This document shows, in pieces, positions 48,382 through 64,000 of a stretch of 64,000 nt of DNA. The stretch comes from Escherichia coli. GTDB taxonomy: Bacteria > Pseudomonadota > Gammaproteobacteria > Enterobacterales > Enterobacteriaceae. The notes beneath the pieces were generated by a model. That model ran no database searches, had not been told where the DNA came from, and saw only the letters and a program-made list of their open reading frames with translations. A program made the position numbers and the translations under genes. The DNA is taken from the NCBI RefSeq assembly GCF_045037415.1, contig NZ_CP173438.1; one strand, 5' to 3'. Every line of letters starts with the position of its first letter. The stretch's first letter is position 1.

Positions 48382-49575
48382 ATGACAACATTACTTAACC
48401 CCTATTTTGGTGAGTTTGGCGGCATGTACGTGCCACAAATCCTGATGCCCGCTCTGCGCCAGCTGGAAGAAGCTTTTGTCAGCGCGCAAAAAGATCCTGA
48501 ATTTCAGGCTCAGTTCAACGACCTGCTGAAAAACTATGCCGGGCGTCCAACCGCGCTGACCAAATGCCAGAACATTACAGCCGGGACGAACACCACGCTG
48601 TATCTGAAGCGCGAAGATTTGCTGCACGGCGGCGCGCATAAAACTAACCAGGTACTCGGTCAGGCTTTACTGGCGAAGCGGATGGGTAAAACTGAAATTA
48701 TTGCCGAAACCGGTGCCGGTCAGCATGGCGTGGCGTCGGCCCTTGCCAGCGCCCTGCTCGGCCTGAAATGCCGTATTTATATGGGTGCCAAAGACGTTGA
48801 ACGCCAGTCGCCTAACGTTTTCCGGATGCGCTTAATGGGTGCGGAAGTGATCCCGGTGCATAGCGGTTCCGCGACCCTGAAAGATGCCTGTAATGAGGCG
48901 CTACGCGACTGGTCCGGCAGTTATGAAACCGCGCACTATATGCTGGGTACCGCAGCTGGCCCGCATCCTTACCCGACCATTGTGCGTGAGTTTCAGCGGA
49001 TGATTGGCGAAGAAACGAAAGCGCAGATTCTGGAAAGAGAAGGTCGCCTGCCGGATGCCGTTATCGCCTGTGTTGGCGGTGGTTCGAATGCCATCGGTAT
49101 GTTTGCAGATTTCATCAACGAAACCGACGTCGGCCTGATTGGTGTGGAGCCTGGCGGTCACGGTATCGAAACTGGCGAGCACGGCGCACCGTTAAAACAT
49201 GGTCGCGTGGGCATCTATTTCGGTATGAAAGCGCCGATGATGCAAACCGAAGACGGGCAAATTGAAGAGTCTTACTCCATTTCTGCCGGGCTGGATTTCC
49301 CGTCCGTCGGCCCGCAACATGCGTATCTCAACAGCACTGGACGCGCTGATTACGTGTCTATTACCGACGATGAAGCCCTGGAAGCCTTTAAAACGCTTTG
49401 CCTGCATGAAGGGATCATCCCGGCGCTGGAATCCTCCCACGCCCTGGCCCATGCGCTGAAAATGATGCGCGAAAATCCGGAAAAAGAGCAGCTACTGGTG
49501 GTTAACCTTTCCGGTCGCGGCGATAAAGACATCTTCACCGTTCACGATATTTTGAAAGCACGAGGGGAAATCTGA
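48382..49575 (+). CDS. trpB: Tryptophan synthase beta chain
   Basis: 397-aa PLP enzyme (HxGxHK region). Confidence 0.95.
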
Positions 49576-50381
49576 TGGAACGCTACGAATCTCTGTTTGC
49601 CCAGTTGAAGGAGCGCAAAGAAGGCGCATTCGTTCCTTTCGTCACCCTCGGTGATCCGGGCATTGAGCAGTCGCTGAAAATTATCGATACGCTAATTGAA
49701 GCCGGTGCTGACGCGCTGGAGTTAGGCATCCCCTTCTCCGACCCACTGGCGGATGGCCCGACGATTCAAAACGCCACACTGCGTGCCTTTGCGGCGGGTG
49801 TGACCCCGGCGCAGTGCTTTGAGATGCTGGCACTGATTCGTCAAAAACATCCGACCATTCCTGTTGGCCTGCTGATGTACGCCAACCTGGTGTTTAACAA
49901 AGGCATTGATGAGTTTTACGCCCAGTGCGAGAAAGTCGGCGTCGATTCGGTGCTGGTTGCCGATGTGCCAGTTGAAGAGTCCGCGCCCTTCCGCCAGGCC
50001 GCGTTGCGTCATAATGTCGCACCTATCTTTATTTGCCCGCCGAATGCCGACGATGATTTGCTGCGCCAGATAGCCTCCTACGGTCGTGGATACACCTATT
50101 TATTGTCACGTGCGGGCGTGACCGGCGCAGAAAACCGCGCCGCGTTACCCCTCAATCATCTGGTTGCGAAGCTGAAAGAGTACAACGCTGCACCTCCATT
50201 GCAGGGATTTGGTATTTCCGCCCCTGATCAGGTAAAAGCAGCGATTGATGCAGGAGCTGCGGGCGCGATTTCTGGTTCGGCCATCGTTAAAATCATCGAG
50301 CAACATATTAATGAGCCAGAGAAAATGCTGGCGGCACTGAAAGCTTTTGTACAACCGATGAAAGCCACTACACGACGTTAA
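49575..50381 (+). CDS. trpA: Tryptophan synthase alpha chain
   Basis: 268 aa; start overlaps the trpB stop. Confidence 0.95.
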
Positions 50382-50390
50382 TTTGAGACA

Positions 50391-50416
50391 AACCGCCAGA
50401 AAACATCTGGCGGTTT
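50391..50416 (+). terminator. trp operon terminator (trp t)
   Basis: Hairpin aaccgccaga-aaacat-ctggcggttt immediately after the trpA stop. Confidence 0.85.
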
Positions 50417-50431
50417 ATTGATGGTAAAAAA

Positions 50432-50569
50432 TTAGAAGCGGTAACCTGCAGAGAACATAAATACCCACGGGTCAAGGCGTACGTTGTCAGAATAACGCCC
50501 TGCAGGCAGCACTGCGCCGTTGGATTTATATTTCACTTCGGTATCGATATCCATGTACCAGACCGACAT
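50432..50569 (-). pseudogene. ompW: ompW 3'-terminal fragment (last 45 codons, ...VRLDPWVFMFSAGYRF), candidate prophage attachment junction
   Basis: Translation ends with the characteristic OmpW C-terminus; the frame is closed by a stop immediately upstream of codon MSVW; the 5' part of the gene is absent from the window. Confidence 0.75.
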
Positions 50570-50756
50570 GTTTTAAAAAATGCAATAAGACATTGTATCT
50601 GAAAGAAAAAACAGGATTTGAGGCGCTTTTTTATACCGTTTTTCCGTGTTTTTAACTGCCTGATTTTATTGAAATCTTTTTTAGTTTTGCAGAAAGGATT
50701 TTTTGCTCGATCGCTTTAATTTTATACATTCCTGATAACGGAAATTTTTTTGCCCG

Positions 50757-50786
50757 TTGACAGTTTTTGTTCTCCGGGGCTATATT
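50757..50786 (+). promoter_or_regulatory. Candidate sigma70 promoter (TTGACA, 18-bp spacer, TATATT) upstream of the Rha gene
   Basis: Consensus-like hexamers read in the sequence; function inferred. Confidence 0.3.
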
Positions 50787-51013
50787 CCTCACACAACCGC
50801 AAAATCGGTTGTCGGGATTGGCGTCTCGGATAACATCACAACGCATAGCCGCGTTTGCGGTTTTTTTTGCGTTAAGCATTGCCACATTCGCATTATGGTG
50901 GGGCGTGCAGGGGCGGAGAAATCCGCGCCGGGTTTTGTGATGACCGGTTACGCCAACCCTGTACGTCTCACCACCTCCCTGATTGGCGTCAGAGGTGGTG
51001 ATCATCCAATTAA

Positions 51014-51586
51014 TTGGAGTCATCACATATGAATACAGCTATAACTTTTTCTAACGAGTCACCAAAAGTCTTTTTCAAAGATGGTCGCCTGGTTACCACC
51101 TCTCAAGCTGTTGCCGACTACTTCGATAAACAACATAAACACGTTTTAGCTAAGATTGACACACTCGACTGCTCTCCCGAATTTACATCAGCCAACTTTT
51201 CGGCCGATGTTCAGACTGTCGAAATTGGCAACGGCGCAGAACGTGAATCACGATGCTACCTGATCACAAAAGACGGCTTCATGTTCCTCGTAATGGGATT
51301 TACTGGCAAAAAAGCAGCCAGACTAAAAGAAGCTTACATTGAAAAATTTAACGCAATGGAAGAAGAACTCCACAAACGTCCTCCTGCAGCACAAAACTCC
51401 CCCGCCCCAAATAATGGATGCGCATTACTGATCCACTTCGATAAACACGGTCAGGTCGAGTTCACAGAAAAAGTCCCCGCCGATGCGATGGTATGCACGC
51501 TGGAACGGTTTAAATTTTATCTGGAGCAACATGGGTGGATCGTTGCCCGTAAAGAACAATTGGTGGAAAGGTTGATGCGGTTTTAA
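51014..51586 (+). CDS. Phage regulatory protein, Rha family (190 aa)
   Basis: N-terminal Rha-type motif (VTTSQAVADYFDKQHKHVLAKIDTL; LVMGFTGKKAARLKEAYIEKFNAME). Confidence 0.7.
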   Translation: MESSHMNTAITFSNESPKVFFKDGRLVTTSQAVADYFDKQHKHVLAKIDTLDCSPEFTSANFSADVQTVEIGNGAERESRCYLITKDGFMFLVMGFTGKKAARLKEAYIEKFNAMEEELHKRPPAAQNSPAPNNGCALLIHFDKHGQVEFTEKVPADAMVCTLERFKFYLEQHGWIVARKEQLVERLMRF

Positions 51587-51593
51587 TGAATGC

Positions 51594-51626
51594 AAAACCC
51601 CGGATGATCACCGGGGTTAATTTTAT
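51594..51626 (+). terminator. Rho-independent terminator downstream of the Rha gene
   Basis: Hairpin aaaaccccgg-atgatca-ccggggtt followed by AATTTTA. Confidence 0.6.
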
Positions 51627-51947
51627 CGAGCGTGATTGCCGCTAATCGCCATCGCTCTGATTGAGCGTAAATCATTCAGGTTATTCAGTTCTTCCTTCTG
51701 CTCTCGCTGACGTCAATAAATCCCATCATTGCGATCAACCTCATCCTTAACCATTGATGCGAGCAGTTCTTCCAGTTTCTGCGCTGACAGCTTTACCTGG
51801 TGATCTTCAGCATCTTCCCGGGCTATTGTGGTTCGCGCAGTGGCTGATTTTGCTGACATCACCACAGGGGGCAGACGGACCATTGAACCATGGCCTCCGG
51901 AACAAATAAGGGCAAAAATAACAACCACTATCGAAAGCTCACAAACT

Positions 51948-52085
51948 AACCGCAGCACGTTCCTGCATACGACGTGTCTGCGGCATAATCCCAATGATTA
52001 CTCCCTGACAGGATTTGCAGGCCACTCAATATCAGGTGCAGTTGATGTATCAACACGATTCAACAATACCCGATATTTATTCCAT
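51948..52085. repeat. Direct repeat copy 1 (about 140 bp): tfa 3' end plus its terminator hairpin
   Basis: Roughly 85-90 percent identical by eye to 52998-53135 (aaccgcagcacgt...ggcataatcccaatgattactccctgacag...ggccactcaatatcaggtgcagttgatgtatcaacacg). Confidence 0.8.
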
Positions 52086-52267
52086 GCCTCCAGCAACGAT
52101 CTTTCTTCCTCCGTTGCGATTTCCAGATCTACAGCATCCTGCAGTGGCGCAATATACTCACTGAATTCCTGGATGTAGAACTGTGTGGTGACGGTCTTCC
52201 AGCCATTCGGCTCCTGCTGTATCGAAGCATACCAGGCTATTTCAATATCGCTATGCTGCGGCAGCAT
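51998..52267 (-). pseudogene. Tail fibre assembly protein (Tfa) C-terminal fragment, 89 codons
   Basis: C-terminus ...[36 protein letters not shown] resembles the intact Tfa at 54952-55479; the N-terminal half is missing. Confidence 0.65.
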
Positions 52268-52323
52268 TTAACCCCTTGTAATTCATCGCCATAATTGATT
52301 TAATTCACAAATAAAACTATAAC

Positions 52324-52992
52324 ATGGTGAAATCAATGAAAAAAAACACAGATGATGGGGCTAAAATTTACACACCACTTACCCTAAAGCTTTATGACTG
52401 GTGGGTTTTGGGAGTATCAAATCGGCTTGCATGGGGATGTCCTACAAAGGAACACCTTCTTCCACACTTTCTGGAACATGTAGGTAACAACCATCTGGAT
52501 ATTGGTGTTGGAACTGGGTTTTACCTTACTCACGTACCTGAGAGTAGTCTGATATCTTTAATGGATTTGAACGAAGCTAGCCTGAACGCGGCATCTACAA
52601 GGGCTGGGGAATCAAAAATTAAACATAAAATTAGCCATGATGTTTTTGAACCTTATCCCGCGGCGTTACATGGTCAATTTGATTCCATTTCCATGTTTTA
52701 CCTTCTTCACTGCCTGCCTGGAAATATATCTACAAAAAGCTGTGTAATACGCAATGCGGCGCAGGCCTTAACTGACGATGGAACTCTATACGGAGCCACA
52801 ATTCTTGGCGATGGAGTTGTGCACAATAGCTTCGGTCAAAAACTGATGCGCATTTACAATCAGAAAGGCATCTTTTCAAACACAAAAGATTCCGAAGAAG
52901 GCTTAACACATATACTCTCAGAGCATTTCGAGAATGTTAAAACCAAGGTTCAAGGTACTGTAGTAATGTTTTCCGCTTCAGGGAAAAAATAG
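52324..52992 (+). CDS. Class I SAM-dependent methyltransferase (222 aa), prophage moron
   Basis: Motif I LDIGVGTGFY; AT-rich coding sequence; flanked by the diverged tfa 3' repeats. Confidence 0.7.
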   Translation: MVKSMKKNTDDGAKIYTPLTLKLYDWWVLGVSNRLAWGCPTKEHLLPHFLEHVGNNHLDIGVGTGFYLTHVPESSLISLMDLNEASLNAASTRAGESKIKHKISHDVFEPYPAALHGQFDSISMFYLLHCLPGNISTKSCVIRNAAQALTDDGTLYGATILGDGVVHNSFGQKLMRIYNQKGIFSNTKDSEEGLTHILSEHFENVKTKVQGTVVMFSASGKK

Positions 52993-52997
52993 CATCC

Positions 52998-53135
52998 AAC
53001 CGCAGCACGTTCTTGCTTAAGACGTGCTGCGGCATAATCCCAATGATTACTCCCTGACAGGGTTCGTAGGCCACTCAATATCAGGTGCAGTTGATGTATC
53101 AACACGGTTCAGTAACACCCGATACTTTTTCTAGG
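52998..53135. repeat. Direct repeat copy 2: tfa 3' remnant plus hairpin (ccgcagcacgt...acgtgctgcgg)
   Basis: Paralogous to 51948-52085; the hairpin lies immediately after the methyltransferase stop. Confidence 0.8.
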
Positions 53136-53139
53136 CTTC

Positions 53140-53373
53140 CACCACCAGCACGACAAGATGCCGCATACAGTGAACCAGTCAGTCCAGTTTTCAGACAACC
53201 AGTGCGTCACCTTTTTGAAGGCGCTTTAAAGCACGTTTTAATCCAGGTCGGCCTGTCCTTGTTCCGCTTAATTTATCTTCAAATATTTGTTCATATCCTG
53301 CACAAACAAGAGCGTTTCGTTGCAGATCTGTATTCTGGTCATTTGTTGATACCCTTACATAGCCAATCAGCAC
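53140..53373 (-). pseudogene. pin: DNA invertase Pin/Gin/Hin family, truncated and interrupted
   Basis: N-terminal serine recombinase signature (V)LIGYVRVSTNDQNTDLQRNAL...LKRLQKGDALVV, then in-frame stop, degenerate sequence and fusion to the tfa remnant about 75 codons in. Confidence 0.8.
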
Positions 53374-53427
53374 GCTGAATCTCCCGTCCAAAAGCACAAA
53401 TCATGCCATGCAGGCCAGAAACCGCCA

Positions 53428-53453
53428 TTATCTAAAACCTCGGTTTACGAGAA
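53428..53453. repeat. Invertase crossover site (pix/gix-like, TTATCTAAAACCTCGGTTTACGAGAA)
   Basis: 26-bp site matching the Gin/Pin crossover consensus, inverted relative to the site at 56509-56534. Confidence 0.85.
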
Positions 53454-54386
53454 CTCGGCACAAGCGGGGAGAAAATACCGTTACTCAGTACAGCGAATAC
53501 CTGGACTAATCGACAAACATTCAGCGGTGGCCTTTCTGGTGAACTATCCGGCAATGCTTCTACAGCTGCAAAATTAAAAACTGCCAGGAAAATAAGCAAT
53601 GTGGCTTTTGATGGTTCCTCCGATATCACATTAAAAGCAAGTCATGTTGGTGCGTTTGCCTTAGGGAAAACAGGAAGCACCGTTGCGAATGATAAAGCAG
53701 TTGGATGGAACTGGAGTAGCGGAGCCTATAACGCAACTATTAGTGGTGCATCAACGTTAATTATTCATTTTTATATGGGAGAAGGAAGTTGTCCTGCAGC
53801 TCAGTTTCGGATTAATTATAAAAATGGCGGTATTTTTTATCGTTCAGCCCGTGATGGTTATGGTTTTGAAGCCGACTGGTCCGAATTTTACACCACCACC
53901 AGAAAGCCTTCAGCAGGAGATGTTGGTGCACTGCCGTTATCTGGTGGTCAACTGAATGGTGCACTGGGTATCGGAACATCCAGTGCTCTTGGCGGTAATT
54001 CGATTGTATTGGGTGATAATGACACGGGCTTTAAACAAAATGGCGATGGTAATCTGGATGTTTATGCTAATAACGTCCATGTTATGCGCTTTGTCTCCGG
54101 AAGCATTCAAAGTAATAAAACCATAAATATTACAGGGCGTGTTAACCCCTCGGATTACGGTAACTTTGATTCCCGTTATGTGAAAGATGTTCGACTTGGT
54201 TCACAGCAATATTATGGAGTGAACAACTGGCAAACATGGAATTTCCAGTGCCCTTCAGGTCATGTATTGTCTGGTATTAATGTTCAGGATACAGGGTCTA
54301 ACTCTGCCGATAATATAGCGGGCGTTTATTACAGACCCGTTCAAAAGTATATAAATGGCACCTGGTATAATGTAGCGAGCGTTTAA
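53441..54386 (+). CDS. Silent alternative tail-fibre C-terminal cassette (receptor-binding domain), in frame from the crossover site
   Basis: Frame open from the crossover site ([61 protein letters not shown]...); shares ALGGNSIxLGDNDTGxKQxGDG and QKYIxGxWYNV motifs with the expressed Stf C-terminus; ORF track lists 53601..54386. Confidence 0.7.
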
Positions 54387-54387
54387 T

Positions 54388-54921
54388 ATGATGCACTTAA
54401 AGAACATAAAAGCGGGTAATGCTAAAACACTGGAACAGTATGAGTTAACAAAGAAACACGGAGTTATCTGGCTTTACTCTGAGGACGGAAAAAACTGGTA
54501 TGAGGAAGTGAAAAACTTTCAGCCAGACACCATAAAGATTGTTTACGATGAAAATAATATTATTGTTGCCATAACCAAAGATGCCTCCACACTTAACCCT
54601 GAAGGTTATAGCGTCGTTGAGATTCCTGATATTACCGCCAACCGGCGTGCTGACGACTCAGGTAAATGGATGTTTAAAGATGGCGCAGTCATTAAACGTG
54701 TATATACCGAAGAAGAGTTGCGCCTACAGACGGAAAACCAGAAAAAAATATTATTACAGCAGGCCAGAGAAAAAACGCAGTTCTGGCAAACACAGCTTAC
54801 TTTGGGGATTATCACTGATTCAGACAGACAGCAACTGATGAACTGGATGCGATACGTGCAACAGGTTGAGACAACTGATACCTCGGTTCTTCCTGTAACA
54901 TTCCCGGAACCACCAGAATAA
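54388..54921 (+). CDS. Tail fibre assembly protein Tfa (cognate to the silent cassette)
   Basis: 177 aa paralogous to the minus-strand Tfa (MxHLKNIxAGNxKT..EQYxLTKK.GVIWLY.EDGKNWY). Confidence 0.8.
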
Positions 54922-54922
54922 G

Positions 54923-54947
54923 AAAAGGCCCGTACGGGCCTTAATTT
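54923..54947. terminator. Bidirectional terminator at the centre of the invertible segment
   Basis: Hairpin aaaaggcccgtacgggcctt between the convergent tfa genes. Confidence 0.6.
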
Positions 54948-54951
54948 GTTG

Positions 54952-55479
54952 TTATTCTGGTTTCTGTGGCCATTCAGGCTTTGCAGTATCCACACGGCTG
55001 ACCATAACGCTGTAGCGTTCCCATGATTCCAGTCGTGTGCGTTCCTCATCAGTTGCCATATTCAGTCTGACAGCACGTTCCAGCGGTTGAATCACAGACT
55101 CCGCTTCGGAAAGCAAAGCGGCTTTTTGTAACTCTGCCTGCTGTTGCAGTTCCTGTTTTGTATATTCCCGCTTTACTACTTTACCATCCAGAAACTTCCA
55201 GTTTCCCGAGATATCGGCGCGACGGTTGGCTGTTATATTCGGTAACTCAACAACACTTAACCCGTCAGGGTTAAGTGTTGATACGTCTTTCTCAATACAA
55301 CGAATAATCCCCTTCTGGTCATAAGCTATTTTTAAAGTATCATCCTGAAAGTTTTTTAATTCGTCATACCAGTTTTTACCGTCTTCTGTATATAGCCAGA
55401 TAACGCCAGCTTTTTTCGTAAGCTGATACTGCTCAATGGTTTTGGGGTTTCCGGCGGTAATATTTTTCAGATGTTGCAT
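54952..55479 (-). CDS. Tail fibre assembly protein Tfa (expressed orientation)
   Basis: 175-aa ORF directly downstream of stf. Confidence 0.85.
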
Positions 55480-55494
55480 ATATTCTCCTGATGG

Positions 55495-58401
55495 CTATGC
55501 CTGTTCAACGTTATACCAGTTACCAGAAATGTATTTTTGTAGTGGTCGTGACACCATCCAGTCATCTCCATCAACCTCACCAATAATTTGCAATCCTGTT
55601 GTCACATGACCATTACCTGGTTCGCAAAGTCCTCCGCGATATAATGTGTCAGAACGTCTGCCTCCCAGACGCACATTTCTGATAAAAGAACTATTCAGGT
55701 AATCATTTAAGTTTGACCCCCAGCACCCACCAAATATATTTCCATCGGTGTTATAACGGACGCCACCCGCAATAAGAGCACCCGGTGAAATAAAGGATTT
55801 ATCGTTCGGGTTAAACTGCCATAAAGCATCATTACCGCCATCGCCACGCATATGAATACATGGAACCGGAAATCCATACTGTTCTGTCAGTAAATACCCA
55901 AAGCTGACCGCGCCGGGATAGCCCTGTCCATTGCGAATGGACAAGCCCTTAACTATCGGCACGTAAAGACCACCAGGAGTGGGATTCCAGGCAAACTGCG
56001 TCTGAACAAAAGGCGCGGTGGCATTATTCAACTGGTCTGCAAATGCGCCACTTCCATCAGGAATTATTCCCTGATGAATATATGCAACCCGCTTATAAAA
56101 ATCAGCAGATGCGGGTTGAAGCCCAAATGCCAGTTGTCCATTTGAATAGAATAAAAGGACACCGTCGCCGCCCTGTTTAATACCAGTGTCGTTATCTCCG
56201 AGAGTAATGGAATTACCGCCCAGTGCGTTATCTGTACCAAGCGCCAGCCCACCATCAATTTTGGCCCCGTGGCTGACAGATATAGCACCTGTTCTCAGAT
56301 TTATAGCGAATGGCCTTAATGGGCCGATATCACCGTTTTCGCCTTGTCCTTCAGCCGTCGGAATGAAATGAAGAAAATCTTCTGAACGACGGAAAATAAG
56401 ACCGAAGGCATCATTGAAAATTCGCAGCGCATTCACCGTGCCAATTTTCAGTTCTCCGGTCATTTTATCGCCGGAACGCTGAACGGCGTTACCAGCCTTG
56501 TTTACCGTTTCCTGTAAACCGAGGTATTCGATAACGGCGGCAACGGTCGATTTCGCAAGAATATCCCGCCCAACTTTTGTCAGGGTTGCCAGACTGGCAA
56601 CATCATTCCCCGTAAAATACGGAAACCTGTCTGCCGCAGTAGCAAGCCCGGCCAGCGCCGTCAGGGTGGCATCTTTCGGTTGCTTACCCGCAAGCGCGCT
56701 AGTCATGGTGGTCGCAAAATTCGGGTCGTTGCCCAACGCCGCAGCCAGCTCGTTCAGCGTATTCAGTGCGTCAGGCGACGAGTCCACGAGGGCAGCGATC
56801 GCAGCCATAACATAAGCCGTGCTTGCGATTTGGGTATTATTCGTTCCCTGTCGCGCAGTTGGTGTTGTTGGCGTTCCGGTCAGTGCAGGACTATTTAAGG
56901 GCGCTTTCTTGTTCGTTTCACCCATTACCGCCTTAACCGCTTTTGGCGTTGCCGCCAGTGACTCGGAAGTGCTGTTGGTCGCACTGCTGAGCTGTACTAT
57001 CCCCTTTTTCGTCGTGCTCGCATCCTCAAGCGCCACGGCGGATGCAATATCCTCTGCCCGTTTTGCCGCTGTCTCGGCGCGCGTTGCCGCGGATTCCGCC
57101 GTACTTTTGCTCTGAGCTGCCGCCGTCGCACTGCCAGCTGCCTCTGTCGCCTTCGTGGATGCCGTCGTGGCGCTGCCCTTTGCTGCTGACGCCTGTCTGG
57201 TCGCCTCATCTTTTGAAGCAGACGCAGATGATGCCGATGACGCCGCTGAACTGGCTGACGATGCGGCTGCCGCCTTAGAGGAAGCAGCATTGTCTGCTGA
57301 AGTCTTTGCATTTGTTTCAGAGGTTTTTGCTGCAGAAGCAGACCTCGCTGCTGCAGTGGCTTGCTCAGTGGCTTTGCCAGCCTTCGTTGTGGCTGTTGAA
57401 GCGGATGATGCGGCGCTTTCTGCCGATTTTCCGGCGGCGGTGGCACTGGCTGAGGCCTGCCCGGCACTTGTTGACGCGGCACTGGCAGATAATGCAGCCG
57501 CTGTTTTTGAACCTGCCGCAGCTGAGGCGCTCTGTCCCGCTGCTGTTTCAGAAGACTTAGCGTTCGTCTCGGACGTTTTTGCCGCCTTCGCGGAATTTCC
57601 TGCCGCCGTTGCCGAGGAAGCTGCACTACTGGCACTTGATGATGCATTCGTTTCTGAAGATTTCGCTGCCTCTTTTGAGGCCGCCGCACCCCGTGCCGAG
57701 GTGGCAGCTTCTGACGCCTTCGTGGTCGCTGTGGATGCAGAAGTGGCTGCCGATTTTTGTGATGCTGCGGCATTCGTTTCTGACGTTTTCGCGGCACTGG
57801 CGCTGGTAGCTGCCGCGCTTTTTGATGACTCTGCAGCAGCAGCACTTTTTGCTGCTTCACGGGCCTTTGTCGATGCCGTTCCTGCGCTGGAAGACGCTGA
57901 CTGAGCCGACGACGCGGCCTGTCCGGCTGACGTGCTGGCGGCACGTGATGAGGCTGCAGCATCGGTTGCATGAGTTGCCGCCTCGCTGGCTGATGCACTG
58001 GCATCGCTGGCTGATTTTTTCGCGGCTGCCGTATTCTGTGCAACCGCGGAGGCGTTACGTGACACCTCTTCTACCATCTGCTCAAAGCGGCGCAGTGCCT
58101 CCGGTCGTACATCATCCTCCGTCATGGCACCGAGAAAATCATTCAGCGTACCTGGTCTGGAACCTTCATAGACGGTAATGGTCCCGGCATGTGAAGGCGG
58201 AAAACCTTCAACCAGCAGGGTGACGCTGTACTGACCATGCTCAACATCCATGCTGTAACGTCCGGCTTCATCCGGATTTTCAGAGGCCACCGTGTTCACC
58301 ACCACCGTGCTGCTGGTTCGTCTGGCCTTCAGCACAATGGTGCAGTTCTGTACTGGTTTTCCTGTGCCATCTTTAAGCACGCCAGAAATTTTTACTGTCA
58401 T
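55495..58401 (-). CDS. stf: Side tail fibre protein Stf (968 aa): lambda-like constant N-terminal part fused at the crossover site to variable C-terminal cassette A
   Basis: N-terminus MTVKISGVLKDGTGKPVQNCTIVLKARR... recognised as lambda Stf-like; long Ala/Ser/Thr-rich repeat region; crossover site encodes IEYLGLQET. Confidence 0.9.
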   Translation of the reverse strand: MTVKISGVLKDGTGKPVQNCTIVLKARRTSSTVVVNTVASENPDEAGRYSMDVEHGQYSVTLLVEGFPPSHAGTITVYEGSRPGTLNDFLGAMTEDDVRPEALRRFEQMVEEVSRNASAVAQNTAAAKKSASDASASASEAATHATDAAASSRAASTSAGQAASSAQSASSSAGTASTKAREAAKSAAAAESSKSAAATSASAAKTSETNAAASQKSAATSASTATTKASEAATSARGAAASKEAAKSSETNASSSASSAASSATAAGNSAKAAKTSETNAKSSETAAGQSASAAAGSKTAAALSASAASTSAGQASASATAAGKSAESAASSASTATTKAGKATEQATAAARSASAAKTSETNAKTSADNAASSKAAAASSASSAASSASSASASKDEATRQASAAKGSATTASTKATEAAGSATAAAQSKSTAESAATRAETAAKRAEDIASAVALEDASTTKKGIVQLSSATNSTSESLAATPKAVKAVMGETNKKAPLNSPALTGTPTTPTARQGTNNTQIASTAYVMAAIAALVDSSPDALNTLNELAAALGNDPNFATTMTSALAGKQPKDATLTALAGLATAADRFPYFTGNDVASLATLTKVGRDILAKSTVAAVIEYLGLQETVNKAGNAVQRSGDKMTGELKIGTVNALRIFNDAFGLIFRRSEDFLHFIPTAEGQGENGDIGPLRPFAINLRTGAISVSHGAKIDGGLALGTDNALGGNSITLGDNDTGIKQGGDGVLLFYSNGQLAFGLQPASADFYKRVAYIHQGIIPDGSGAFADQLNNATAPFVQTQFAWNPTPGGLYVPIVKGLSIRNGQGYPGAVSFGYLLTEQYGFPVPCIHMRGDGGNDALWQFNPNDKSFISPGALIAGGVRYNTDGNIFGGCWGSNLNDYLNSSFIRNVRLGGRRSDTLYRGGLCEPGNGHVTTGLQIIGEVDGDDWMVSRPLQKYISGNWYNVEQA
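56509..56534. repeat. Invertase crossover site inside stf (TTCCTGTAAACCGAGGTATTCGATAA)
   Basis: Reverse complement matches the site at 53428-53453 at 22 of 26 positions; Gin/Pin consensus. Confidence 0.85.
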
Positions 58402-58553
58402 ACTTTTCCACCAATAAAAAAAGCCCGCAGCAGTGACGCCACGGGCTTCAGGACAGTGTAACTTTACGTTTCCTCAAACGCAGTTCACCCCATAAGGTGG
58501 ATGAACCTGCGTATCATAACAATATTTACAGAAGATAAATCGGCGTCTGTTGT

Positions 58554-58775
58554 CAGAAACGGTATCCGATACCAACAATAAATGCATCCGTTCGCCAGTC
58601 GCCACTACCGGAACCTTCATAAGCAAGGTCAATGGTCACGGATTCGGTCGGGTTAAACTGCACGCCAGCCCCCCACGCCAGAGACGTGTTGCTGTGGCGA
58701 CCGTCATCACTTCCGGTCAGCACATCGTGCGTTTTCCCCTTGTTGTCAGTTACGCGGAGATAATCCCCGGAGAAA
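58554..58775 (-). pseudogene. lom: lom 3' fragment (Lom/Ail/OmpX-family outer membrane protein, C-terminal part SGDYLRVTDNKGKTHD...GYRF)
   Basis: Translation recognised as the lambda Lom C-terminus; separated from its N-terminal part by the IS element. Confidence 0.85.
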
Positions 58776-58862
58776 GTTGCGTATTACCGTGAAGGAGATC
58801 GGTGAGTAACATCGATGGAGATCGGTTCGTGTCACTTTCACAGAACCGTTTTTAAATTACCT

Positions 58863-59612
58863 TCACTGATCTCCTTCGGTCAACGGAGATTGTATTTTCC
58901 GCATTGATTCTCCTTTAAGTTCGATCTTGATACTGCCATGAACCAGTCGATCTAGGATGGCATCCGCATGTGTGGAGTCTCCGATCATTTTGTACCAGTT
59001 TTCCACCGGCAACTGGCTCACTACGATGATTGAGCCTCGTTGGTACATCAGATCCACTATTTCCAGCAGGTCGCTACGCTGTTCTGATGAGAGAGGTTCC
59101 AGCCCCCAGTCATCCAGAAGCAGCAGATCGCTATTATTCAGCCTGGTCAAAAGTTTGCTGTATCTTCCATCAGCATGCCCCTGATAGCACTGTTCCATCA
59201 GCGCTTTAAGGCGATAATAGTAGACCTTGTATCCCTGTCGGCAGGCATTATGACCAAGTGCACATGCCAGGAACGTTTTACCGCTGCCGGTGGCCCCGGT
59301 CAGTAAAATATTTTGTTTCAGGGTTAACCAGTTTCCCTGACTGAGTGAACGGATGAGGGCCCTGTCCAGCCCTCTATTGTTACGATAATCCAGCTTTGAT
59401 AACTCAGCATTAAGTCTGAACCGTGCATGTTTGATCAGACGCTCTGCCTTCCTGTTTTCACGGCAGGTTAGTTCTTCTGCTGTCAGTAATGACAGGCGTT
59501 CTTCGAAGCCCAGCTCCTGGTATGTGCCCGGTTGAGCAAGTTGCTTTTTAAGCGCATCACGGAAGCCGGTGAGTTTAAGTGCGGTCAGTTGTTCGTAAAG
59601 ATGATTCATCAT
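58863..59612 (-). CDS. istB: IS21-family helper protein IstB (AAA+ ATPase)
   Basis: Walker A GATGSGKTF, Walker B LLLDDWG; 249 aa. Confidence 0.85.
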   Translation of the reverse strand: MMNHLYEQLTALKLTGFRDALKKQLAQPGTYQELGFEERLSLLTAEELTCRENRKAERLIKHARFRLNAELSKLDYRNNRGLDRALIRSLSQGNWLTLKQNILLTGATGSGKTFLACALGHNACRQGYKVYYYRLKALMEQCYQGHADGRYSKLLTRLNNSDLLLLDDWGLEPLSSEQRSDLLEIVDLMYQRGSIIVVSQLPVENWYKMIGDSTHADAILDRLVHGSIKIELKGESMRKIQSPLTEGDQ

Positions 59613-59623
59613 TGGATCCCGTA

Positions 59624-61165
59624 TCAGTGGTAATACTCACTGCCGCGTACGTTTTCGTGTTCCATCGTGGATAACAGATCTGGTTTTGGATCCTGAACAG
59701 GTTGTTTATCCAGACCTTTTTCCAGGATCGATTTAATACCTGACAGACGCCATACCTTTGTTTTCAGAGCTCTTGCACATGCTGCATTAAGTCTGGCTTT
59801 ACTGTATTTTTTATGAAGGTTCAGGAGTCCAAGGCAGAAGCGATAGCTTTGTTCCGGATGTGGACGAGAGTTCAGTATATGAAGCACATAACTATGAGTT
59901 TCACTGCCTATGTGCCCCGCCCATTCCAGAAGACGCTCTGGCGTCCAGGTGGCATGCTGTCGATGAGCTTCAGGCATGTGCTCGTTGCGGGTACTGTAGC
60001 CATAAGTACGCTTGCGCGGGTGCACAGCAACCTCCTGCCCCTGATTGAAGAGTCTTACCAGTTCTCCGGAGATCCATGCTTCCAGTTGCTGGCCTAACAG
60101 CGAACATGGAACCGAGTAGTAATGTTTGTCGATTTCCACGTGGTAATCGGCATGAACTCTGACTTTCTTCACCAGGGTGTAACTGTAACTGGCTTCAGGA
60201 AGAGGCTTCAGTGCGGGTTTATCAAGCTGGATGAAGAGTTCTGCACGTGAATAACCCAACTTCTGCATTATTTTGTTATTCAGTCTTTCCAGCAACTCCC
60301 GAATGCGCTGATTAAGCGATGCAAGGCTGTAGAAGATCTCATGCCTGATTCGGGCCATGATCCAGCGTTCAACAACCTGAACGCCAACTTCAGCTTTGGC
60401 TTTATCTTTCGGTTTACGTGGCCGCGCAGGCAAAACTGCGACATTATAATGCTCAAGCATCTGCTGGTAGGTAGGGTTAACGTCAGGATCATACTTACAT
60501 GCCCTGGATGTGGCGCTTTTCAGATTGTCCGGAACAACAAGTTCAGGAACGCCACCCAACCACTGGAAGCAGCGAACATGACTCATCACCCAGTCTTCAA
60601 GCTGCTGAGACCAGGTGGCCTCTGCCCATGTGTAACTTGATGCCCCGAGAACAGCTACGATGACCTGAGCAGTTCTTATTTCTCCGGTCTCAGGGTCGGT
60701 AACGCCAACGGTAGGTCCACAGTAATCAACGAAAAGTTTTTCGCCAGCTTTATGTACCTGACGCATTGATGGTGAAGTGGTTTTGAGCCATTCACGGTAC
60801 ATCCGGCAGTAATGGTTATAGCTGTAAAAACCGCCTGGATTACGCTCACAGTATTCTTCCCAGAGTAGCTGCAGCGTCACGCATTTATTACGCAGTTCCC
60901 GGTGTACTGTAGCCCAGTCAGGCAGAGAGTGCTTCTTCATCTTAACCTGGGTCTGAAGGAACGCATGTTTTAGTTTTGTATCATCCCATCCTGTAGGTAA
61001 GGGCCACTGCTTTATGCCAAGTTGAGCCGCCCGATTAGCATATCTGGATACAACGGAAGGGGAGATTGCAAGACTACGACCAATTTGTCGATGGCTGAGT
61101 CCAACACCGTATTTAAGCCTAAGAATTTCTTTAAGTTTTCTCATAGAAATTGGAACTGTTGGCAT
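59624..61165 (-). CDS. istA: IS21-family transposase IstA
   Basis: N-terminal helix-turn-helix and DDE-type integrase core upstream of istB; the 513-aa ORF is longer than typical IstA, so the true start may be internal. Confidence 0.75.
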   Translation of the reverse strand: MPTVPISMRKLKEILRLKYGVGLSHRQIGRSLAISPSVVSRYANRAAQLGIKQWPLPTGWDDTKLKHAFLQTQVKMKKHSLPDWATVHRELRNKCVTLQLLWEEYCERNPGGFYSYNHYCRMYREWLKTTSPSMRQVHKAGEKLFVDYCGPTVGVTDPETGEIRTAQVIVAVLGASSYTWAEATWSQQLEDWVMSHVRCFQWLGGVPELVVPDNLKSATSRACKYDPDVNPTYQQMLEHYNVAVLPARPRKPKDKAKAEVGVQVVERWIMARIRHEIFYSLASLNQRIRELLERLNNKIMQKLGYSRAELFIQLDKPALKPLPEASYSYTLVKKVRVHADYHVEIDKHYYSVPCSLLGQQLEAWISGELVRLFNQGQEVAVHPRKRTYGYSTRNEHMPEAHRQHATWTPERLLEWAGHIGSETHSYVLHILNSRPHPEQSYRFCLGLLNLHKKYSKARLNAACARALKTKVWRLSGIKSILEKGLDKQPVQDPKPDLLSTMEHENVRGSEYYH

Positions 61166-61357
61166 AGGTATCCTTTACCGGAATGGCAAAAGATACAGAT
61201 CAACACACCTGTGAAGTTCCAATAACATTGATGGAGATCACTGAATAACAAAATGAGTCAAAAGTGATCTCCATCGATGTTATTCAGCGATCTGTTCAAA
61301 TGTTATTACCCGATCTCGATGGAAGTTATTGAGTGATCTCCTTTCATGAAAATACGC

Positions 61358-61738
61358 AAAAGTCGACACACGGCTGTAAGCCACACCCGCCATCGCATAC
61401 GCGCTGAACCATTCATTCACGCGTACAGACGGCCCCGCCATCACGCTGAACCAGCGGTTACGCACGGAATCTTCATGCCAGCGGGTATCGCTGTAGCGCG
61501 TTTTTTGCTCATCCTCAGCATTGGCATAACTGAAGGACGTAATCAGCCCCAGCGCGTCCGTAAACTCATAACGGTATTTCACGTTAATCCCGTTCAGATC
61601 ATCACTACCGGGAACGTTCGTCGAGGCATGGAGATACCCCGCGCTCAGCGTGGACTGATGTTCTGCTGCACTCGCTGGCGTAGCAGCGGCGACCTGCCAG
61701 ACTACTGCGGACAAAATAACAGCACATAATTTACGCAT
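61358..61738 (-). pseudogene. lom: lom 5' fragment (signal peptide and first beta-strands, MRKLCAVILSAVV...AYSRVSTF)
   Basis: Recognised as the lambda Lom N-terminus; the ORF track extends it into the IS end (61280..61738). Confidence 0.85.
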
Positions 61739-61765
61739 AATTACCTCTCGCTTTTCTGCAATAAA

Positions 61766-61790
61766 AAAGGCGCCATTTCTGGCGCCCGTA
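61766..61790 (-). terminator. Hairpin with T-tract downstream of J
   Basis: ggcgcca-tttc-tggcgcc followed by TTTTTTATT on the minus strand. Confidence 0.5.
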
Positions 61791-61805
61791 TCTGGGTTAT
61801 AAAAT

Positions 61806-64000
61806 TCAGCTAATCGTGATGCCTGCAGTGGCTTTCTTCATCACCACAACCAGCAAATCGCTGATACTTGCTGTGGGATACCAGTTATTTACCAGCCATG
61901 CTGACACCGAAAACTCCAGTGTCATGTGACCGTGACCGGCAGGCATATCAATAACACCACTGTAAATCAGCGTATTATCCAGCGCGGTACGGTTATAAAT
62001 TTCAGCACCGTTTTTCCGCACTATCAGACGGCATGAGGAGTAAATATCAGTATGCTCTTTCTCATGTTTAGCGCCGCTGAATGCCACCGCCGGAATAACA
62101 ATCTGCCGGTCAAACGGCTGATCGTCATAAACCCTGACGGTAATGGTTCCTGATGGCCACCGCTCCGGTGCACGGGAGTCCCGGGGGAAAGCTTTGCCCA
62201 CTGTTTTAACGAGATCGCCTTCAATCTGGTTCGCGGACAATTTTCCCAGAACCCGACAGTTCTCGTTAATCGTGACGTTGTTGAGCGTCCCGGAGTTCGC
62301 ATTCACGTTACCGCTGATATCGGCATTTTTCGCCGTCAGCCGCCCGTCCGGTGTCAGGGAAAATGCCGGAGGATTACCGCCGCTGGTAATGGTGGGAGCC
62401 GTCAGATATTTCAGGAACACTTCATTCATAAATATCTGATCGCCCTGACCAACAAACATCGGCTTTGTGTTGCCATTCGCAGGATTAATCATCGCAATCC
62501 TGTCTGCCGCCAGCAGCACCTGACTCTGCATTCCTGCTGGCGTATTCTCAATACCGGCACCGATACCCGCAATATAAAGGCGTCCGTCCTGCATCTGCTG
62601 CAGTTTCACGGCCCACATGCTGTTCAGGTTATTATTTGTATCAACCTGAACTTTCTGTATCTGCTGGATTGCCGCACTCTGATTTTCCAGTTTTTTATTG
62701 ACGGTCTGCGTGATTTCATTGCTGACATTCGTAATGGACGTCCTGATTTCAGCCAGGTCCGGCGCAAGCTGACCGTTATCAATCTGCGTCCACAGCTCCT
62801 GGGCCAGATGTGTTTTCCCGATTTCTCCTTTGAAAAAATCCAGGTAACCTTCCGCATCATCGCTCGCCCGACCGACAGCCTCCACGAATGCCGATTTGCC
62901 AACAGTATTCACACTGCGGATATAAAAATAATAATCATGGCCCGGTTTGATATTGATACTGGCAGCTATCCAGTACAGCGCCGAGCCAAGATAGCGGGCT
63001 GCGGTTTCAACCTGCCTGATATCCGCAATCCGCTTTTCCGAGAACCAGAACTCAAACTGTACCGTCGGGTCATAAACGGCAAGATGTGGCGTTGCGGTTA
63101 TCTGAAAATAGCCCGGCGTCAGCTCAATCCGCGACGGTGCTGCCGGTGCGGCAATCCGGAAGGTGGTGGTGGCAGGTTCACCCTGCTGGCCATAGCTGTT
63201 TATCGCCCGCACCGTCAGGGTGTATTCCCCGAGCGGCAGGCCGCTGAAACGGTGCTCCGTGTCTGCGGTGATGGCGGTGGTCACCAGTCTGGCATCCGTT
63301 CCCTTACCACTGGTCAGGCGCAGACTGAAGCGCACACCCTTCACCACCCGCGGCGTGTCCCATTTCGCCTGCGCCAGATACTGGCCGTCAGCTGCGCTCA
63401 CCTCCACCGTCAGGTGCTGCACTGCCGGTGGGATGACGCTGTTCAGGGAACCTGACTGCGGCTCAAAGCGGGCACCGTTATCCACGATGGCTTCTTTTTC
63501 CGGTACGTGCTGCACCGCCGTGATGGCAAAGGTGCCGTCCGTGTTTTCCCGGATGGAGACACAGCGGAACAGGCGACGGCGCAGTGACGGCAGGGAGAGT
63601 CCCCACACCCCGTATGTCTCCACACCATCAGGCAGGGTACTGACCTGTATCCGGTCCGGCGCGGGGTGTGCGGTGATGTCCACACTCACCGGCTTACCGC
63701 TGCCGTTAATCAGGTTCACCGCCGATGTACCTGTCTCCGGCAGGGTAACCTCACGGTCCAGCGTCAGGGTGCGGGTGGCAGCATCAATGGACAGGACACG
63801 TCCGCCGGTCAGGGTCCCGGCATAGTCATTATCACAGATTTCAATAATGTCACCGGGTGTGTGCCGCAGCCCCTGAACCCGAGCGTGAAATCCACCGTCT
63901 GCGTTTCCAGCAGTTCGGTCTTTATCACCCACAGTCCGGCACGGTGGGCCTGACCGCGGCTGGTACAGCCGAACGCGTCCATCTTCAGCAGGTTGCGTCC
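61806..64000 (-). CDS. J: Tail tip host-specificity protein J, 3' portion (gene continues beyond the window end)
   Basis: Long ORF upstream of lom in lambda gene order, resembling the central and C-terminal regions of lambda J; frame still open at the window edge. Confidence 0.8.

Follow-up and report, generated by a model that had tools for sequence, protein, structure and literature searches.

The window, meaning the whole 64,000-nucleotide stretch of Escherichia coli DNA that was analysed, contains the end of the trp operon, a short piece of the outer membrane protein gene ompW and, from there to its last base, phage DNA. The features on which the argument rests are the following:

49575 to 50381, plus strand: trpA, the last gene of the trp operon
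50390 to 50416, both strands: hairpin between the convergent trpA and ompW (from fold energies)
50432 to 50569, minus strand: displaced native 3' end of ompW, the last 45 codons, covering predicted loop 4 and strand beta-8 (from the open reading frame list and identity to strain SK1144)
50540 to 50569, minus strand: attachment (att) repeat at the int-distal junction, ATGTC[G]GTCTGGTACATGGATATCGATACC (from three-way and seven-sequence junction alignments)
50570 to 50756: AT-rich phage arm (30% G+C) adjoining the repeat
50757 to 51586, plus strand: first phage module inside the junction, with a promoter, isrK and C4-type antisense RNAs, an 'ash family' reading frame and a Rha-type antirepressor
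53191 to 53397: truncated DNA invertase beside an invertible segment
58863 to 61165: IS21-family element ISEc12 (istA, istB) interrupting lom (from the annotation of strain H105)
50570 to 64000: int-distal 13.4 kb of a lambdoid prophage of about 55 kb, with tail-fibre remnants, the invertible segment, lom split by ISEc12, and gpJ

The minus-strand reading frame at 50432..50569 translates as MSVWYMDIDTEVKYKSNGAVLPAGRYSDNVRLDPWVFMFSAGYRF and ends in a stop codon at 50432-50434; RefSeq labels it 'OmpW family outer membrane protein, missing N-terminus'. Across the fragment, 174 bases match the 3' end of intact ompW in SK1144 (and in other strains) at 100%, which excludes a chance resemblance to an outer membrane beta-strand. 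The sequence-only reading of this DNA had already recognised the last 45 codons of OmpW on the minus strand, closed by a stop just upstream and followed there by AT-rich phage DNA, and had found the middle of the fragment unlike K-12 OmpW. All of this is reproduced: the translation is the one it quoted, the stop (TAA, 50573-50575) lies one codon further upstream, beyond an additional Asn codon (AAC, 50570-50572) that precedes the fragment's ATG, and the G+C fraction is 0.30 in 50570-50760 versus 0.54 in trpA. The first three bases of the arm (AAC on the minus strand, 50570-50572) are still ompW-like, and of the K-12 type. The middle of the fragment reads TEVKYKSNGAVLPAGRYSDN where K-12 OmpW has TTANYKLGGAQQHDS, the loop in the window being five residues longer; judged by its sequence, this unusual middle is the native allele of the host lineage, neither phage sequence nor decay. 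The fragment itself is promoterless, separated by the prophage from the remainder of its gene, and constitutes a dead remnant adjoining trpA. Its origin accounts for the 'OmpW family, partial' pseudogene found beside trpA in ST131 genomes.

Many ST131 (O25b:H4) chromosomes matched a 1.2-kb query spanning the junction at 100% identity, and the complete junction of the window was present in 344 of 5,426 complete E. coli genomes, the best matches being ST131 strains. We took advantage of one such chromosome (H105, 99.993% identical over 48724-64000) to read past the end of the window. Starting from the fragment, H105 carries the Rha antirepressor, tail-fibre remnants, the invertible segment, lom split by ISEc12 and J, after which come the tail, head, terminase and lysis genes, Q, replication genes, cI/cro-like regulators, exo, xis and int. 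Read from the other end, the RefSeq annotation of H105 thus gives the lambdoid layout (int-xis-exo ... Q, lysis, terminase, head, tail, J, lom, tail fibres). Family matches in the window itself bear out its tail-fibre and invertase genes. The integrase gene lies directly against the 3' end of an ompW that is intact (639 bp), and beyond ompW come yciC, yciB, yciA and tonB. The encoded protein has the arm-binding, central and catalytic domains of a lambda-type integrase (PF09003, 2.6e-21; PF22022, 1e-4; PF00589, 2.4e-16); these assignments are taken from Pfam, the NCBIfam match having stayed below threshold. In H105 the reading frames of int and xis are intact. The same prophage carries IS insertions (ISEc12 and a second element, ISEc52) and several truncated genes, which suggests that it is defective and that excision or particle formation may be lost.

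The first module inside the junction (50757-51586) opens with a near-consensus promoter (TTGACA-18-TATATT) just inside the prophage end. Rfam matches above the gathering score were obtained for isrK (50793-50867) and C4 antisense RNA (50891-50978), together with a match to the c4-a1b1 target, and the module looks like an antisense-RNA-controlled antirepressor switch of the P1/P7 c4 type or the Gifsy-1 IsrK type. Further inward, two minus-strand matches to Rfam IS009 (52041-52244, with 112.5 bits against a gathering score of 117, and 53090-53169) both overlap remnants of tail-fibre-assembly genes.

Strain SK1144 has no prophage at this site, and its chromosome reads trpA, the same hairpin, an intact 654-bp (217-aa) ompW, and yciC; yciG, yciF and yciE are absent. 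A three-way alignment places the int-side junction on this empty site (attB) to the left of a short repeat, and the junction in the window on attB to its right. The direct repeat at the two prophage ends, of which the window holds one copy, comprises 24 bp of perfect identity (50540-50563), or 30 bp with one mismatch; at the mismatched position the int-side junction has A, and both the trp-side junction and the empty site have G. Within it, 50540-50559 (GGTACATGGATATCGATACC) is invariant across the ST131, E2348/69 and O145 lysogens. The two junctions and the empty site satisfy the classical attL, attR and attB definition of site-specific integration. The sequence-only reading had proposed a phage attachment site inside ompW, at which integration leaves a 3' gene fragment at one prophage end, and with this both junctions, the empty site, the repeat and the integrase agree. 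The comparisons by which it asked to be judged gave concordant results: alignment of the fragment with full-length ompW and with the far end revealed the 24-bp perfect repeat, the unoccupied trpA-ompW region of SK1144 proved to be the sum of the outer junction halves, and the far prophage end (in H105) carries an excisionase and a lambda-type integrase abutting intact ompW. An intact ompW thus does exist elsewhere, but with the matching repeat at the other prophage end.

One might suppose that the fragment is not the end of a host gene at all, but an ompW-like sequence carried by the phage, comparable to the secondary attB within a prophage described as attB-in-PP_3 by Nakamura et al. Lambdoid phages are indeed known to carry ompW-like 121-bp sequences (PMC8112680), and we found 15 phage records with a coding sequence resembling the OmpW C-terminus. 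We nevertheless consider this origin hardly credible, given that the fragment lies on the chromosomal side of the repeat and that it is, together with the stretch leading to trpA, 100% identical to the empty-site chromosome. Moreover, the loop variant of the fragment was absent from the phage collection, in which the best E. coli phage matches reached 64-69% protein identity (a single match of higher identity covers only the conserved last 18 residues). With the variant in none of the phage records searched, a phage-borne origin of the loop was dropped.

On the other side of the fragment, the chromosome departs from K-12 before trpA has ended. The TrpA C-terminus (50367-50381) is KATTRR in the window versus KAATRS in K-12 and in Escherichia whittamii, and it is within these last five codons that the sequence diverges from K-12, marking the edge of a divergent block. 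The hairpin that follows folds with -17.9 kcal/mol on the plus strand (z -4.2) and -21.1 kcal/mol on the minus strand (z -7.1); it has a short T-run and was not called by a simple terminator scan. Its fold indicates that it probably acts as a two-way terminator for trpA and ompW. Because the departure from K-12 begins inside the last five trpA codons, the hairpin is, on sequence comparison, part of the lineage-specific divergent block and not the trp t terminator of K-12. Hence, of the earlier description of the fragment as lying twenty bases after the trp terminator, the distance holds (about 16-19 bases past the hairpin) and the identification with the K-12 terminator does not.

The absence of yciG, yciF and yciE between trpA and the ompW fragment, already noted in the sequence-only reading, was likewise borne out; the link to the prophage that the reading implied was not. 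In K-12 the three genes lie between ompW and trpA, and here they are missing exactly at the end of a prophage, so that their deletion during integration or faulty excision, which would have brought the ompW fragment beside trpA, comes to mind as an explanation. This is contradicted by SK1144, in which trpA is followed by an intact ompW without yciGFE although the site is prophage-free, and empty-site strains of this kind refute a phage-caused loss. The variant trpA end, hairpin and ompW 3' end were found in 685 genomes, only 344 of which have the phage junction. As yciGFE was found in 4,730 genomes, the two states sum to 5,415 of 5,426 and are near-exact complements. The extent of the divergence points the same way: ompW of the ST131 type is 97-100% identical to that of K-12 over its first ~215 bases, and from ~nt 215 of ompW to the last trpA codons the identity falls to 56-84%, a divergent block of ~480 bp replacing ~2.2 kb of K-12 sequence. 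The block starts ~300 bases upstream of the att site (at ~nt 520 of ompW), in a part of the gene that bears no phage footprint, and because of this it was not made by this phage. We accordingly give a deletion by the prophage next to no weight.

A degenerate search for the loop, in one genome per species, returned a single other species, E. whittamii. In its strain Sa2BVA5, trpA, the hairpin and ompW are adjacent as in the window, the loop-4 sequence is the same, and the identity to ST131 amounts to 95.6% in the ompW part, 96% in the intergenic hairpin region and 89% in trpA. Taken together, these sequence comparisons suggest that the block represents an old structural allele of the genus, or one that was exchanged between Escherichia species. 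A further explanation would see in it the scar of an older integration, whose prophage was later deleted together with the original ompW end and yciGFE; after all, phages at this site replace the 3' end of ompW by design, and the block ends inside the last trpA codons, as an untidy deletion might. Considering that the block begins at ~nt 215 (well upstream of the att site), that the variant occurs in no phage record and that the whole arrangement is common to E. whittamii, we deem such a scar very improbable; an old structural allele or an inter-species transfer fits better. In either case, the absence of yciGFE and the unusual loop predate the phage and are independent of the prophage.

The ST131-type ompW, a mosaic of a K-12-like start and a divergent remainder, also differs at precursor position 142, with Leu in place of the Ala of K-12. 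Residue 142 has been described as the minimum determinant for pairing with the TraN of R100-1, and a bulkier residue in Citrobacter rodentium blocks conjugation (PMC10833342). From its sequence, the ST131-type allele might alter the uptake of plasmids with alpha-type TraN.

We reason that integration at this locus would have proceeded in the following manner. Beside its integrase gene, the phage att site carries a copy of the final ~120 bases of ompW, and a lambda-type tyrosine integrase (presumably the one encoded by this prophage) would recombine it with chromosomal ompW. The crossover would fall in a stretch of ~25 bp corresponding to codons 174-181 (Ser-Val-Trp-Tyr-Met-Asp-Ile-Asp-Thr). 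At the int end, this joined the chromosomal 5' part of ompW to the 3' end supplied by the phage, so that the gene persists as an intact 212-aa hybrid, and the host's original 45-codon 3' end was moved ~55 kb away, to its present place beside trpA. What is seen at the int side conforms to this outline: to the right of the repeat, the DNA is that of the phage, encodes ...TTAKYKSGVTTVKDSVRLDPWVFMFSAGYRF and has its own downstream hairpin. The hybrid gene encodes 212 aa with the C-terminal strand and the final Phe intact, the last 32 residues being phage-encoded and their native 37-residue counterpart stranded in the window. The phage-borne 3' end keeps the frame open after integration, three independent lysogens carry the same 3' end, and the hybrid OmpW is predicted to be made and functional.

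In E2348/69 (GGTCTGG) and O145 (AGTGTGG), the first bases of the repeat match the host-lineage variant at both junctions, unlike the A and G of ST131. The phage arm beside the repeat differs as well, reading ...AAAATCTACC in the prophages of E2348/69 and O145 and ...AAAACATGTC in the window, where it resembles ompW of the K-12 type and not that of ST131. For ST131 the predicted attP would consist of the arm ...TTTTTTAAAAC, then ATGTC[A/G]GTCTGGTACATGGATATCGATACC, then ACGGCTAAG.... A single fixed crossover point does not fit the A/G mismatch and the three independent lysogens, unless attP varies among phage lineages. Such variation in attP could explain the junction variants, and would be expected if the overlap must match the host; it is also conceivable that the variable bases lie within a heteroduplex overlap. 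We infer that the exact crossover point lies within the ~25-bp stretch.

The OmpW barrel has eight strands, the first two of which are joined by loop 1 (PMC10833342; structures PDB 2F1T and 2MHL), and because of this topology the segment between strands 7 and 8 would be extracellular loop 4. Three versions of this loop are at hand, namely that of K-12 (TTANYKLGGAQQHDS), the native one of ST131 (TEVKYKSNGAVLPAGRYSDN, 20 residues) and the one supplied by the phage (TTAKYKSGVTTVKDS, 15 residues), and the OmpW segments predicted to tell ST131 lysogens from non-lysogens are TTAKYKSGVTTVK and TEVKYKSNGAVLPAGR. OmpW serves as the receptor for colicin S4 (PMC2649078) and as the partner of TraN-alpha in conjugation (PMC10833342). 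The swap of loop 4 is observed; that it represents a selected lysogenic conversion, altering the receptor behaviour or the antigenicity of OmpW, is a speculative proposition that we hold to be unlikely. If true, it would mean an altered receptor for colicin S4, for OmpW-dependent phages or for TraN-alpha mating-pair stabilisation. Lysogens and non-lysogens of the same clone would present different OmpW surface loops, which could matter for work on OmpW as a vaccine antigen, as well as for studies of colicin S4, of OmpW-dependent phages and of TraN-OmpW specificity in conjugation.

Lambda-like prophages integrated in ompW, with a 121-bp att sequence, have been described under the name PPompW (Nakamura et al. 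2021, PMC8112680; GenBank LC567822 and related records). An integrase >90% identical over >90% of its length defines the family (PMC8112680), and the integrase studied here, measured on H105, is identical at 375 of 376 positions to IntE of 'Enterobacteria phage PPompW_132418'. Every base of the phage-borne ompW 3' end agrees with that of PPompW_132418, whose record marks its ends as 'duplication due to insertion', and the ST131, E2348/69 and O145 lysogens have this 3' end in common. As here, the PPompW prophages of STEC and EPEC occupy the same position in the same target gene, carry xis and int at one end and follow a lambdoid layout. Those of STEC additionally harbour type III effector loci, nleG among them, and a secondary attB of 21 bp; the latter (attB-in-PP_1) is absent, with two mismatches allowed, from the 13.4 kb of the prophage that fall within the window. 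They differ also in the phage arm adjoining the repeat and in the repeat itself, which is a 121-bp imperfect one in K-12-like PPompW hosts and spans 24-30 bp here, the shared stretch being short because the native ompW allele is so divergent.

Within ST131, the prophage has a published counterpart in Phi4 of strain EC958 (Forde et al. 2014, PMC4134206), whose invertible tail-fibre segment measures 3,106 bp and whose invertase is truncated. Both published 26-bp Phi4 crossover sites are found in the window (inverted-repeat arms at 53422-53453 and 56509-56540), and, as far as the published description of Phi4 reaches, the two are the same element, with no differences detected. In the available text of that paper ompW is not named, and its passages on Phi4 give no attachment site. 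We put the probability that the element is a lambda-like prophage of the PPompW family, equivalent to Phi4 of EC958 and integrated in ompW, at about 0.95.

Prophages at this site are widespread. Of the 5,426 complete E. coli genomes, 1,714 had the int-ompW junction (at a coverage of at least 80%), O157:H7, O104:H4 and ETEC strains among them; this places ompW, with a junction in about a third of complete genomes, among the commonest prophage sites of the species. A related prophage occupies this site in EPEC E2348/69 too, together with the same native ompW fragment; in that strain two insertion sequences (ISEc13 and IS200C) lie between trpA and the fragment.

The 'Atlas' prophage of the ECOR strains, treated by Milkman and Stoltzfus and in Campbell's reviews, is reportedly lambdoid and situated at the same chromosomal place, between trp and tonB. 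The arrangement as a whole recalls that of phage 21 and element e14 in icd, in which the att site also lies within a gene, the phage brings a substitute 3' end so that the target stays intact, and the native 3' fragment ends up displaced at the opposite junction, as at ompW. The two systems differ in target gene and integrase, and the part that is exchanged here is a surface loop rather than an internal part of an enzyme. Publications already cover the site of integration, the phage family and this prophage, and the case is an ordinary one of its kind.
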